Below, one piece after another: positions 1 through 6,000 of a stretch of 64,000 nt of DNA. The stretch covers positions 328,466 to 392,465 of the forward strand of contig JADJRH010000002.1 in the NCBI GenBank assembly GCA_016712345.1, read 5' to 3'. The position numbers are program-made. Source of the stretch: Polyangiaceae bacterium (lineage in GTDB: Bacteria > Myxococcota_A > Polyangia > Polyangiales > Polyangiaceae). How positions within the stretch are numbered: the stretch's first letter is position 1; each line of letters opens with the position of its first letter.

Positions 1-3000
1 TAAGATATGCCTGCGTGACGCTCACATTTTCGTTGGCGGAAACAGTGCGCGATTGCGACCCTGTGATACCTGTATTTTCGTTGTTGGCGGTTTGAGTCAT
101 CAGGTTGTTGGATACCTTTTTTGACTTGCCAAACTGGGCATTCACAAAGACGTGTTCTTTGCCCGCCGCATCGTCGAATCGAATGGAATTGGTGCCTCCA
201 CCGCCCGGAGAACTGTAGCTTTGCAGGGCCGTAACCGTTTTGTTGGCGGGCAGTTGATAGGGAGGTGCAAACTTACCATTATAGGTGCGGCTTACAACGA
301 GCGGCCTGTCGGGATCACCGTCTTCAAAAGCGACCATCACCTCCCATCCAACGCGTGGAATTGCCATGGAGCCCGGCATATTCGCTTGCATGACTCGAAC
401 AGGAAGGGACGATTTATCGTTGGGCTCACCCTCCAAATCCCAGGGAAACTGAACAGTGATCCTTCCCGCGTTGTCGGTATGAATTTCTTCGCCGGAAGCC
501 CCCGTTACAAAGGCACTCTGTATTCCGGCGAGCCGCGGCTTGGGAGTTACATTCGGAAGGCGAAAGGGTAGATCGAGCGGAATGGCTTGGATTTTGGCGA
601 TCACAGGGCCACTTGTTGGAGTCCACTCGTGCGTGACAGCCACCACTACGTATTTACCCGTTGCCTGTGCCGAACCTGAATAGTCGGGGCCCGGTTCAAT
701 TTCAAGCGAAAGGCCGGGGGCCAGGTTGACCGCTGTTGACCGAAATGTGAGAACTACGCTGTCGGCTCGAAGGGCTTCAAGTCGTTTTTTGGCGCGCGCA
801 TCACCAACGCTCGATGTTTTGAATCCACCCGGTGCTTGATACACCTCCACCGTTTTTTCTGTATCGGTGCCCGCTGTCGCGTTTGATTCAAGTTTGAGGG
901 CGGGTTTTTCTTGGTCATAGTCGCGGAGCGTGACTTTACCGGGGCGCCGTTTCGCCCGCAGCTCGGCATCGAATGCGGCGATTGACGCGGGCCCAAGCGC
1001 CGCGGCATCGGTGAGGGGAAGTTTGTCGGTCAGGCCCGGGAGCGCGTCGGAACTGCAATCTTCCACAACAATGATTTCAGACCCGTCGTCGGCGGCTTCA
1101 AACCTGAAAAAAAGACCTTCCTCTTCACACATACGGCGAACGAAAAGAGCGTCATTTTCAGCGTATTGGACAACGTATTGCCGCGCGGCATGCTCCTCCA
1201 TGGTGCGCAGTTTTACGTGATCGTCTGGGTAACCCGCTTCAACGAGAATTTTTTTGACCAAATTGGGAATGGTAATGTCCTGAAAAATGCGGCTCCGCGT
1301 TCGATGCTGAACAACAGCCAAGAGGGGCCGCACGACGGCTTTATAACGCCTCCCCTGGGTTGCTTGAGAAGTTACGAGGGTTGTCCACTGTGTAATCACC
1401 CCGGCGATAGGTCTGTGGGCCGCGCCGTTTTGAATGCCAAGCACGCATGGTTTGCCGAGAAACGACGATGAAGTGAGCGGCTCGGGCGACACGAGCAAAA
1501 GGTCGAACGTGGAAAGTTCACCCAACCTTTCTACCCCGCGAACCTCGCGGCACTCAATCGGCTCGGTTCCATCCACAATGAAGGTAATACCCATGGCCGG
1601 ATCTCACTTTCGAGGGCGCTTGAGTTGAACTGTCTCAAGGTTGGATGAAACGGCTGCTGTGCCGGTCACCGAATAGGCGGGTGCTGTTTTTTCTGAAATG
1701 GGGATGTATTGGGAGCATCCTTTGAGCGCCGTTCCACCTTGTGTACTCAACGTGGTCTGGCCACTGAGAAGACCGGCAACAACGGCGGTCATATTCCCTT
1801 TGAGCTGAACGGGGAGCGGCAAAAGTCCCTCGGCGCTCGGGGGTTCAACGTGTACACTTTGCCAGCGAACAGCGGCGCCGCTTCGAAGGAAATAGAGCGC
1901 GCCTCCGTTTTTTAATACGCCCCAAACAAGCCACTTGTCCGGCCACGGGGGCAACGTGCTCAGTTCTTTGGAGCGCTCATCGTGGGCCGCGAGCGCGCGG
2001 GTAATGGTTGGATCGGCGGTTTTGATACGCATGGACACTCCCTGCCTACCGTAGAGCGCCAATTGATCCATTCGAGCGAGATTCTCTCGAATGAGCAAGC
2101 CCGAAGGATCTTTGGAAAACGGGCTCAATACCCACAAACAATCGCCCAAACTGCCCGCGCCGTAGACGTTTATAAACTCTTTATAATCGCCGGGAAGCGC
2201 GTGGCCTAACATCGCTTCCACGTGACTCCAACGCTCTTCAGAAACCGGTTCTACCCCAGGGGGCGGGGCGAGTTTTTTTGTGAGGTCCGCAAAAGTCATA
2301 CGGCTATTTCCCCTTTCCAGCGGAAGCGCCGTCGGCGGCAAAATTGGGCGGAGGTACCTTTTCAGCCCCCGGGTCAAACGCGCCCCAAGTCAGTTTCCCA
2401 CTCAGGAGAGCGGTTAAAAATTCTGTCATGGTGCCAGGGAATTCTGCGTATCGAAACGACCGCGTTTCCGCCACAACTTTCCACTCATTGGGATTTCCCT
2501 GGGTGAGCCACAGGAGGCCGTCGCCGTTTTCTGTGTGACCCCACGGAAAAACACCTCCGCTTTCTGGAAAGATTGGGTAAGGCATGGAGTTGACCGGGGC
2601 GAGTGGAGGGGGAAGGGTAAACCCGGGAACAGGGTTGTTTCGGCGCGAAGAATGGTAGATGGAGAGCCGAAACCTTACCTTTTCGAGCCACAATTCTGTG
2701 GTAGAAAACGGGTTTAAGACGCGCATGTAGTTGGAAATTGTACCCGAGCCGTAGGTTTGCAAAAACTCCTTGTAATCGGCTGGAAGCGGCGTCCCAATGG
2801 CCGATTCTATAAAGGCCCAATCAGCGGGTTTTGGAGCGTCAACCACCTTTTTGGGAACGGGTAAAACGCTCTGGATCGAGGCCGCAAGGGAGGCCGTTTT
2901 TTTGGTCGTCGCCGTTGTTTTTTTTGCCGCAGGTGTGGCCTTTTTTGCGCTCGCCATGGTTAAAGCACCGTTTCTGTAACAGTGGTTCCACCCACCGGCC

Positions 3001-6000
3001 CGTAGGTGATGTCCACACTGGAGGGGCGACCGTTTCCGTAATTGGTAATGTTCACATCGTAGGTGATGGGCGTGCTTGGCGTCACTGTATTGAAGGCGCG
3101 GTCTTCGATCATCCGCATGGTATGTTGATTGTAATCCGCGCGCATGGTGACAAGGTTTTGTTCCCAATCGCCGCTCCCACCCATGCGATTGGCCCACAAG
3201 TGCGCACGGTCATATCCTGGGCTGATCCAACCCGGTGGAATGATGCCGCCGTTTGCATCCGTACCCAAACCTGAATTGCACATGTCCTTGGTGATGATGG
3301 CTGTCATACCGTTTATGTGGCCGTTTTTATCAACGGTGAACTTGACATACCCAAGACCGGGGCAGGGCTTGAGGCCCAATGGGTCAACCGTGTTGGTGGG
3401 GTTACCACCGAAACCGAATAAGTCCATTCCCCCTCTCAACCCAATGGGGTCAGGGCTGATCCACTTGGCTTGGTCCGCGTCAAAGTAACGGTACCGCGTG
3501 GCCGACAGGCCGGTTTCGCTGTCATGGTATTGTCCAAACAGTCGAAGGGGGCTTTTAACAGAAGAGCCCACGCCGCCGCCTTTTTCGGCCACAAGCTTTC
3601 CCCAAACGGTGTGATCTGCCGTCCAAGCAAGCTCACCTTTTCCAGTGATGAGATCTTTGGGTGTACCCAAGTGATCGGTAACCACCCACGTGGCATGCCC
3701 GTTGTCATCTTGCATTACCGGCACGCCCGAAAGGGGTATGCGCGTGTGTACACGAACATGGCCGCTGCTCTCAATTTCACCGAGAATGTGATCGGCGTCC
3801 CATAAAAATTCAGTGGTTTGCACTTCAGGTGGAGTACCCAGCGTACCCATGGGGCTCACGGAGTCGGCGGGTGCGGGCCCAATCACCTGCTTTTTGACCC
3901 GCCTTCCAAACGCGTCGTACACAAACAAGACTCGACCACCCGTGGGCAGTTTTACCTCGCGGAGTTGACCAAAAGCATCCCACAGATATTCAAACGCTTC
4001 TCCCGTGGGCTTGTGATCGCGGAGTATTGTCTTGCGTTTTCGGCGGCTCTGTTCGTCGTACGAAAGTTCGGCATGGGGAGTTCGAGCAACCATTCCACCT
4101 CGTTTCAAACTCCAGGGGGCCGACTGTTCATCGAGCGAGGCCATGCGATGGAGAGCGCCTGAAACGTCATATTCCAAAACGTCGCTCGTGCGCGCTGTGT
4201 GTACCGACGTTAACCTTCCGAGAGTGTCGTGTTCATATCGCTTTTTTCCCCAATGAAGGTCTTCTGACGCAACGAGCAACCCACCTGCCTGAAACTTCCA
4301 ACCGCGCCGCGAAAGGGTTTGAGGCCCCTTCTGCGTGTGGAGCATGACAGACCTCTCCGCCGCAAACCCGTGGGGGCCGTGCGCCGTGAGAATGTCCACA
4401 TTGGCTTCGTAAATGTACCTTCGAATTTCACGCCCGCTGCCGTCACGAACAAGCAGCGTTTTGTGGCCACAATAGTCAATGCCCACCACGCGATCCATCA
4501 GGTCGTAGAAGTAGAGCGTTCGCCGACCGTCGGGTAGGGTGAGCGTGGTAAGTCGACCTGCGGCGTCATACTCATACCGGACAACGCGTCCGTTTTGAGA
4601 AACTCCAACAATGCGACCCAAGGCGTCGCGTTCAAACTCAACAAGCACCTTGCCCCACTGCTCGTCGAGTAGAGCCGCTTCAATTTCTCCGCGTGTGTTG
4701 CGTTGGAAGGTGCGCGTTCCATGGGGTGAATCTTCAACCAGGACGTTTCCTGTGCCGTCAAATTCGTACGAACGCCACATTCCGTCGGGAAATTCTACTC
4801 GAGAAACGCGCCCGTTTTTTGAAAAATCATACCGAACAAGCCGCCCGTCGAAGGTGAGTTCTTCTCGAACTCTACCGGCGCGATCATACCGGATTTCGTG
4901 CGTGTTTCCCTTGGGATCGCGAACAAATCGGAGGCGTTCATTCACATCGCGAACGTACTCCCACACATTGCCGGCGGGGTCTTCAAGCCTGGCGAGTTGA
5001 CCCGTGCCTTCGTATTTGAAGCGGGTAACTCTTCCATTCCAGTCGGTGAGTTCTTTGGGGCAGCCAAGGGCGTCGTACGTGACAGTCACGGTATCACCCG
5101 GCGGAAAAGTGACGCTCGTCAGGTGGCCTGCCGCGTCCCATGTGTACGCTGTCACGTCGCCCGCCGGATCGGTCTTTTTTGTCAGTCTACCCAAGAGGTC
5201 GGCTTCATAGCGGGTGACCTGACCATCGGCTTTGGTAACTCGTGCAATGTTTCCGAGGTCGTCGTGTTCGATGCGCACGAGGACTCCGCTTGGCCCAAAA
5301 ATGCCGGTGAGCAGGCCGCGTCCGTCGTAGGTGAGCGAGCGCGCTATTCCACCCGGGGTGACAAAGGCTGTAACGGCCCCGCGTTCATTGTATGAAAACG
5401 TTGCCACGCCCCCGCCCGCGTCGGTCCACTTGACCATGTTGTCGCCGTCATACTCCCACGTGGCAACGTTGCCCTCGGGGTCGGTGGCTTTTACAAGATG
5501 GCCTCTCGCATTGTACTCGTAGACCCGACTTGAACCCGCGGCATCTTTCTGTTCAATCACCAAAAGGTCGGCGTCGTAAACGTTTTCGTCCAGGTAGGAT
5601 GAGTCATACGTGCGCTCTTTTAAAACTGCGCCGTCTTCATTCCAGTGAAACACCCGCGGCTCGGGATTGCCATGGGCCGTTGTTGTCCCTTTTTGAAGAT
5701 CATACGTGAACTCAAATCCGTGCAAACCTCCGTCGCCCCAAGCGCGCAGACAACGGCCGGTTTTTTCGTCATATTCGTATTTGAAAGCGATGCCGTTTTT
5801 GGCCTTTTTCTCAACCAGTCTGTGTTTGGCATCATACCGGTATGCTTCGGTGACGCCGAGCGAGTCAACCGCGCTTTCCAGGTCACCTTCAGGCGAGTAA
5901 TTGTAGGACCAAGAGGCGAGCGTTTCTGTTTTTGGGGGGGTTATTTTGTAGTCAAGCGCCGAAACGTCAACTCGGACAATTCGACCTTGCGCGTCGGATG

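Follow-up and report, generated by a model that had tools for sequence, protein, structure and literature searches.

The window analysed here is a stretch of 64,000 nucleotides from a Polyangiaceae bacterium (assembly GCA_016712345.1, contig JADJRH010000002.1, positions 328,466 to 392,465 of the forward strand). On its minus strand, it carries a gene for an Rhs polymorphic toxin that ends in a small C-terminal toxin domain, the tip. This gene stands head to tail with a vgrG gene and an intervening open reading frame (ORF) upstream, and with two SUKH genes, sukh-1 and sukh-2, downstream. We consider it highly probable that these genes together form an effector-immunity module of a type VI secretion system (T6SS) with a NucA-type nuclease tip. 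The reading is based on the family to which the tip belongs, on its conserved catalytic residues, on the predicted fold, and on the way the genes are linked in the window and in relatives. From this evidence, we infer the catalysis, its substrate, the autoproteolysis, the delivery by the T6SS, and the identity of the neutralising SUKH protein. The features of the toxin gene are as follows.

2960..7120, minus strand: Rhs ORF, 1386 codons

2960..6967, minus strand: Rhs polymorphic toxin gene, 1335 amino acids plus stop codon, with a candidate PAAR-like N-terminus, DUF6531, RHS/YD repeats, Rhs-associated core, and predicted nuclease tip

6596..6877, minus strand: candidate PAAR-like (DUF4150-type) domain, protein residues 31-124

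3371..3451, minus strand: end of the Rhs core, DPIGL-x17-DPLGL (DPxG-x18-DPxGL), in translation DPIGLRGGMDLFGFGGNPTNTVDPLGL

2963..3370, minus strand: C-terminal toxin tip, Endonuclea_NS_2/Tox-NucA nuclease domain, 136 amino acids, protein residues 1200-1335

In Pfam, the tip alone matched PF13930 (Endonuclea_NS_2) with 43.5 bits, above the gathering score of 27 (E 4.5e-11, profile positions 34-128 of 132), a sequence resemblance that is far beyond chance. PF01223, the Serratia-nuclease family proper, gave no match to the tip at E<=1, and no NCBIfam model matched it. The tip alone found no relatives in a word-indexed homologue search, in a search for related loci over GTDB representative genomes, or as a single-sequence query against the PDB. 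The exhaustive HMMER search with the tip over 1.84 billion representatives returned 205 relatives at E<=1e-3, the closest of which, apart from the tip itself, were 39-42% identical. Nearly all 205 have the domain at their C-terminus, as would be predicted for the tip of a polymorphic toxin. A profile search from an alignment of 35 tips retrieved 94 proteins, and PF13930 was present in all except two short fragments. Many of these proteins go by the name 'DNA/RNA non-specific endonuclease', and in some the domain is joined to RHS, PT-HINT, or filamentous-haemagglutinin regions. Against the PDB, the family profile matched Sda1, NucA/EndA, Spd1, and EsaD/EssD, with E values from 7.6e-13 to 1.3e-6.

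A separate observation concerns residues 7-47 of the tip. These were matched repeatedly by several phage-tail-fibre-like repeat proteins (including P0004, P0005, and P0009) through the repeat YTHPSYT..SGLYKITVD.SGHVSA..KSDIT.LGIP. The likeness may have arisen by chance between beta-hairpins, or it may reflect a module that both have in common. 'Tail-fiber' repeats are among those listed as paired with Tox-NucA by Zhang et al. 2012 (PMC3482391).

The Rhs protein is identical to MBK8255237.1, which has 1335 residues, is recorded as 'RHS domain-containing protein', and comes from a metagenome-assembled genome (MAG) of a Polyangiaceae bacterium. Since the database copy has 1335 amino acids, the true start of the gene is the ATG at 6967. 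As in effectors of the Rhs family, RHS/YD repeats are present together with a core that closes in DPxG-x18-DPxGL. In Pfam, RHS_repeat was found in 13 stretches (E 3.6e-70), along with the DUF6531 and RHS domains, and in NCBIfam the Rhs-associated core TIGR03696 scored 64.4 bits against a cut-off of 32.5. The DPxG-x18-DPxGL signature falls within the TIGR03696 match, residues 1171-1250 of the 1386-residue ORF. By analogy with Rhs/Tc proteins, in which cleavage occurs, DPIGL-x17-DPLGL is the expected site of autoproteolytic release of the tip. A recent horizontal insertion of the tip-immunity cassette was considered and found unsupported, as the G+C content is flat, at 0.52-0.60, over 1500..7000.

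The conservation of individual residues was counted in 126 aligned relatives of the tip. The positions concerned are given below in tip numbering, with the protein number where it is used later.

3086..3214, minus strand: predicted beta-beta-alpha-metal finger, tip residues 53-95

3200..3211, minus strand: DRAH, codons GAC CGT GCG CAC; His57 is H1256 of the protein

3155..3157, minus strand: Asn72

3128..3130, minus strand: Asn81, N1280 of the protein

3104..3106, minus strand: Glu89, E1288 of the protein

His57, Asn72, Glu89, and Gly64 are matched by the same residue in all 126 relatives, Asn81 and Gly65 in 125 of 126, and Arg55 in 123 of 126. All seven of these invariant or near-invariant residues are retained by the tip. 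The Tox-NucA motif GH...N...N...E is represented in it by H57, N72, N81, and E89, the G being Ala here. Mutagenesis of EndA identified His160 of DRGH as the general base, Asn191 as metal-binding, and Glu205 as essential (PMC3074123), and in EsaD the helix Asn binds Mg2+ (PMC9616950). Judged by the alignment and by position in the strand-strand-helix element of the model, these roles would be taken by His57, Asn81, and Glu89 of the tip.

AlphaFold run on the single tip sequence gave a predicted local distance difference test score (pLDDT) of 44. With the 35-sequence alignment, the pLDDT was 94.6 and the predicted template modelling score (pTM) 0.87. The model has a strand (53-57) ending at His57, a second strand (73-77), and a continuous helix (78-95) bearing Asn81 and Glu89; as modelled, the tip is a beta-beta-alpha-metal (His-Me) finger packed on a sheet. 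The fold list for the model contained S. agalactiae NucA (14.0), S. pneumoniae EndA (13.5), Sda1 (13.2), S. aureus EsaD (12.5), Spd1 (12.2), Serratia nuclease (10.7), Anabaena NucA (10.4), EXOG (10.1), and EndoG (10.0).

A preliminary description of this DNA had placed the toxin tip at 2960-3420, with about 150 residues following DPIGL...DPLGL. That range spans the tip and DPLGL and leaves out the first DPIGL; the observation itself is confirmed, and the length of the tip comes to 136 residues. The residue numbering then used agrees with the ATG start at 6967 and a 1335-residue protein, and the string then quoted, GYDRAHLWANRMGGSGDWEQNLVTMRADYNQHTMRMIEDRAFN, was found as tip residues 52-94. 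The likeness to Serratia nuclease and Endonuclease_NS has to be narrowed. It holds for PF13930, assigned above threshold, but not for PF01223, and the family is Endonuclea_NS_2/Tox-NucA. The beta-beta-alpha-metal fold that had been suggested is seen in the model as the strand-strand-helix finger, and the profile of the relatives carries the nuclease assignment beyond Pfam to the structures of the PDB. The computational checks suggested there all came out in favour.

The tip is followed by the two SUKH genes, in the same orientation.

2304..2957, minus strand: SUKH-1, 217 amino acids (SUKH_6, 33.5 bits vs 27; SMI1_KNR4, 29.0 vs 25.4)

1604..2299, minus strand: SUKH-2, 231 amino acids (SMI1_KNR4, 33.1 bits vs 25.4)

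The start codon of SUKH-1 lies 2 nucleotides past the Rhs stop, and that of SUKH-2 lies 4 nucleotides past the SUKH-1 stop. The immunity pairing was assessed in the gene neighbourhoods of eight relatives of the tip, which yielded seven informative independent loci; one contig (L008) was too short to judge the linkage. A SUKH gene is located directly downstream of the PF13930 tip in six of the seven. The gene right after the tip is of the SUKH_6/SMI1_KNR4 type in L001, L002 (twice), L003, L004/L005, L006, and L009/L010, and an orphan fragment, L007, has no SUKH gene after its tip. The layout of the window, a tip and then two SUKH-like genes, is repeated in L009/L010.

SUKH-1 shows 26-37% identity (E 4e-18 to 4e-33) to the proteins encoded immediately after the PF13930 tips of loci L001-L006. 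SUKH-2 is 24-32% identical (E 4e-14 to 5e-9) to the immunity proteins of other loci and 29% identical to SUKH-1, and it has an apparent internal insertion and a C-terminal extension of about 50 amino acids. SUKH-1 had no sequence relative in the PDB. Because SUKH-1 is closer than SUKH-2 to the immunity proteins of related tips, it was taken as the cognate one. On these comparisons, SUKH-1 is the probable immunity protein of the tip, and SUKH-2 is probably a more divergent paralogue, a spare or orphan immunity protein. It is rather unlikely that SUKH-2 is the cognate protein instead, or that both are needed. The two proteins do share one operon, both are related to immunity genes beside other PF13930 tips, and L009/L010 likewise has two SUKH-like genes. 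However, it is SUKH-1 that adjoins the toxin, and in all six loci with a SUKH gene that gene has the same place; the E values of SUKH-1 to those immunity proteins are much the stronger; the insertion and the extension of SUKH-2 also speak against its being the partner.

Two further observations were made on the immunity genes. The first 22 codons of SUKH-1 (2892..2957, minus strand) encode a Lys/Ala/Thr-rich tail, MASAKKATPAAKKTTATTKKTA, similar to basic nucleoid-protein or histone-H1-like tails. The tail is missing in all seven homologous immunity proteins compared, and no alternative ATG is present downstream of it. This tail, unique to SUKH-1, may place the immunity protein on the nucleoid. 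The other observation concerns L002 (GCA_964645155.1, CAZYBG010000021.1), in which positions 1..5200 hold two complete pairs of a PF13930 tip and a SUKH gene in tandem, followed by a 73-residue PF13930 fragment. The first of these tips is carried on a DUF4781 protein, and the locus resembles a row of displaced nuclease tips together with their immunity genes.

Upstream of the toxin gene, the evidence for a T6SS link comes from vgrG. The genes concerned are as follows.

7534..9705, minus strand: VgrG (TssI), T6SS spike protein, 723 amino acids (TIGR03361, E 6.4e-103 with 345.1 bits, cut-off 186.35; Phage_GPD, Gp5_trimer_C)

6975..7616, minus strand: ORF between vgrG and rhs, at most 213 amino acids; first start codon past the vgrG stop at 7517

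9716..11558, minus strand: second vgrG copy, split into two overlapping ORFs

<1..1594, minus strand: third vgrG, with a Phage_GPD/OB-fold-like translation, running past the left end of the window

The vgrG gene lies upstream of rhs on the same strand, with one small ORF between them, and this linkage makes delivery of the Rhs toxin by the T6SS well supported at the sequence level. The end of the intervening ORF overlaps the Rhs start codon by 9 nucleotides. Thr, Ser, Lys, and Arg abound in the N-terminal part of its product, which matched no family of Pfam or NCBIfam and is possibly a new T6SS adaptor or chaperone. In the split vgrG, the ORF at 11061..11558 covers Phage_GPD positions 1-121, and that at 9716..11176 covers positions 247-303 and the gp5 domains, so about 125 positions of the Phage_GPD profile are absent. 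This copy is either a pseudogene formed by a frameshift or deletion, or an error of the MAG assembly. The third vgrG starts about 9 nucleotides after the SUKH-2 stop. The Rhs module is therefore located within a tandem array of vgrG islands.

Several points weigh against the proposed reading. The tip has no close relative (at most 42% identity), and its fold model thus rests on an alignment of 35 distant sequences. The N-terminus of Rhs matched PF13665 (Tox-PAAR-like) below threshold in Pfam, with 26.7 bits against a gathering score of 31 (E 6.3e-6, profile positions 13-102 of 108). A scan covering larger ORFs of the window brought up no T6SS core genes (TssB/C, Hcp, and others). In the tip itself, the glycine of RGH is replaced by alanine, a change tolerated in some relatives, and position 78 is Ala where 92 of the 126 relatives have Gln, which could lower the activity.

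These substitutions bear on the possibility of a tip that has the nuclease fold but whose catalysis is weakened or lost, or whose main target is RNA and not DNA. We consider this quite improbable. Position 78 probably matches Gln186 of EndA by its place in the sequence; Gln186 holds one metal-bound water, and its loss reduces, but does not abolish, activity (PMC3074123). In addition, Trp59 and Met63 of the tip stand where Leu is usual, and the family is called DNA/RNA non-specific in its description in PMC5714182, so the substrate preference is not revealed by the sequence. Nevertheless, all the invariant residues of the family are kept. Of the 126 relatives, 111 have Gly before the His, 12 have Ala, and 3 have Ser, and DRAH is therefore within the range of the family. 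As the consensus of the subfamily is A-R-G-H, the unusual residue of DRAH is not the Ala but the Asp, which is found in 5 of 126. Sda1, an active nuclease, appears from the sequence of its mutant crystal to carry Ser at the glycine position, and the two linked immunity genes argue for toxicity. We give hardly any credence to export of the Rhs toxin by a route other than the T6SS, with an incidental linkage to vgrG: the lack of core genes among the scanned ORFs, the sub-threshold PAAR-like match, and the type II, V, VII, and other secretion routes given for Tox-NucA tips in the class entry of PMC3482391 can be cited for it, but immediately upstream, and in the same orientation, stands a full-length TIGR03361 VgrG, the module has a further vgrG copy on either side, the PAAR-like match spans nearly the whole profile, and vgrG-rhs-immunity islands distant from the main T6SS cluster are common.

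The preferred reading is thus the T6SS effector-immunity module with a nuclease tip. Its outline, a nuclease-type Rhs tip with links to SUKH and the T6SS, was already given in the preliminary description, and the Pfam and PDB profile matches, the related loci, and the upstream VgrG argue for it. The two SUKH genes reported there after Rhs are present, the VgrG score bears out the T6SS context, and the general pairing of SUKH proteins with nuclease toxins recurs in the related loci.

According to this reading, the PAAR-like N-terminus would dock the Rhs protein onto the VgrG spike. The shell of YD repeats would encase the 136-residue tip, and the aspartyl protease site of the core (DPxG-x18-DPxGL) would sever it. 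After delivery to a neighbouring cell, the tip would act as a Mg2+-dependent, sugar-non-specific His-Me-finger endonuclease of the Endonuclea_NS_2/Tox-NucA type. In the proposed mechanism, His1256 (H57 of DRAH) serves to activate the water that attacks, Asn1280 (N81), where the helix starts, is a ligand of the metal, Glu1288 (E89) keeps the waters on the metal in order, and Arg1254 contributes to phosphate binding. The expected outcome is degradation of the target DNA and possibly RNA. Binding of SUKH-1 to the tip would protect the producer and its kin, and SUKH-2 would be a spare or orphan paralogue.

The window also contains a second toxin locus, at 36057..44998 on the plus strand, in which the TcdB_toxin_midN/midC and RHS-repeat ORFs are in three pieces.

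36057..37877, 37667..39250, and 39312..41813, plus strand: ORF pieces with TcdB_toxin_midN/midC and RHS repeats

43751..44998, plus strand: Cys_rich_CPCC-domain protein, after these ORFs

The analysis supplies a function, with a predicted activity, for a gene named only 'RHS domain-containing protein' at its source, and gives the Tox-NucA/Imm-SUKH class a myxobacterial member. The result raises no new question, since the catalogue of 2012 already had the domain, carrier, export route, and immunity partner, and experiments have been done on one Rhs-borne example. The searches made brought up no structure of a complex between a SUKH protein and a NucA-type tip. The compact tip, which has no finger loop, and the two SUKH paralogues would offer a tractable pair for a study of the immunity mechanism.

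Among the closest known systems is the Tox-NucA class of Zhang, de Souza, Anantharaman, Iyer, and Aravind 2012 (PMC3482391). Its entry gives the motif GH, N, N, E, includes RHS among the repeats and the T6SS among the export routes, and names Imm36 (DUF600), Imm-SUKH, and Imm-NTF2 as immunity partners. The window module shares with it the motif, the position of the tip at the C-terminus of an RHS-repeat protein, and the listed T6SS and Imm-SUKH. The class entry is purely computational, and the window tip differs by the Ala in place of the G of GH and by its identity of at most 42% to other sequences. In the classification described in PMC5714182, group 5 of the His-Me finger nucleases brings PF01223 and PF13930 together and includes RhsA proteins, FhaB, YxiD, EndA, NucA, and streptodornases. 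RhsA of Dickeya dadantii has an NS_2 domain and degrades cellular DNA, as stated in PMC4096383 with reference to Koskiniemi et al. 2013. RhsA-CT of D. dadantii 3937 is also an Rhs C-terminal tip of the same Pfam family, and it is described as degrading DNA and as giving a competitive advantage (PMC4096383, PMC5714182). The host of RhsA-CT is a gammaproteobacterium, whereas that of the window tip is a myxobacterium, and the two are likened by family and description.

EsaD/EssD of S. aureus, the best-studied toxin of this fold, differs in three respects. It is exported by the type VII secretion system, whereas the T6SS is predicted for the window tip, and its immunity protein EsaG belongs to DUF600/Imm36, described as having a BH3703-like fold in the relevant entry of PMC3482391, and not to SUKH. 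A finger loop in EsaD breaks the active-site helix and triggers inhibition by EsaG through sheet insertion (PMC9616950; PDB 8gun/8guo). The window tip is without this loop. Its Asn81 and Glu89 lie on a single predicted helix with a spacing of only 8 residues, as they do throughout the subfamily, which leaves no room for a finger loop, and SUKH therefore probably inhibits in another way than EsaG. Inhibition of the EsaG type was considered for this tip and rejected on two grounds, the immunity family and the missing loop. As a tentative proposal, whose chances we put somewhat short of even, the tip may represent a minimal NucA-type subfamily (about 136 amino acids, consensus ARGH, no finger loop) that SUKH inhibits by a binding mode different from that of EsaG, whose sheet insertion is the one case with a structural description for this toxin fold.

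The best structural and profile matches of the tip are EndA, NucA, Sda1, and Spd1 (PDB 3owv, 4qgo, 5fgw, and 2xgr). These streptococcal nucleases share with it the DR[GSA]H motif with the general-base His, the metal-binding Asn, and the essential Glu. In contrast to the tip, they are free-standing proteins of about 220-250 amino acids with extra loops and no immunity genes, and their identity to it is 16-25% over the aligned residues. They are secreted for DNA uptake or for escape from neutrophil DNA traps, and are not toxin tips. The PF01223 nucleases (Serratia nuclease, Anabaena NucA, and EndoG) are more distant: they have about 240 amino acids, some are dimeric, the tip does not match their family at the E value given above, and their inhibitors, NuiA and EndoGI, are unrelated to SUKH. 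The window module is thus a divergent new example of the combination of Tox-NucA, RHS, Imm-SUKH, and T6SS that was catalogued in 2012.

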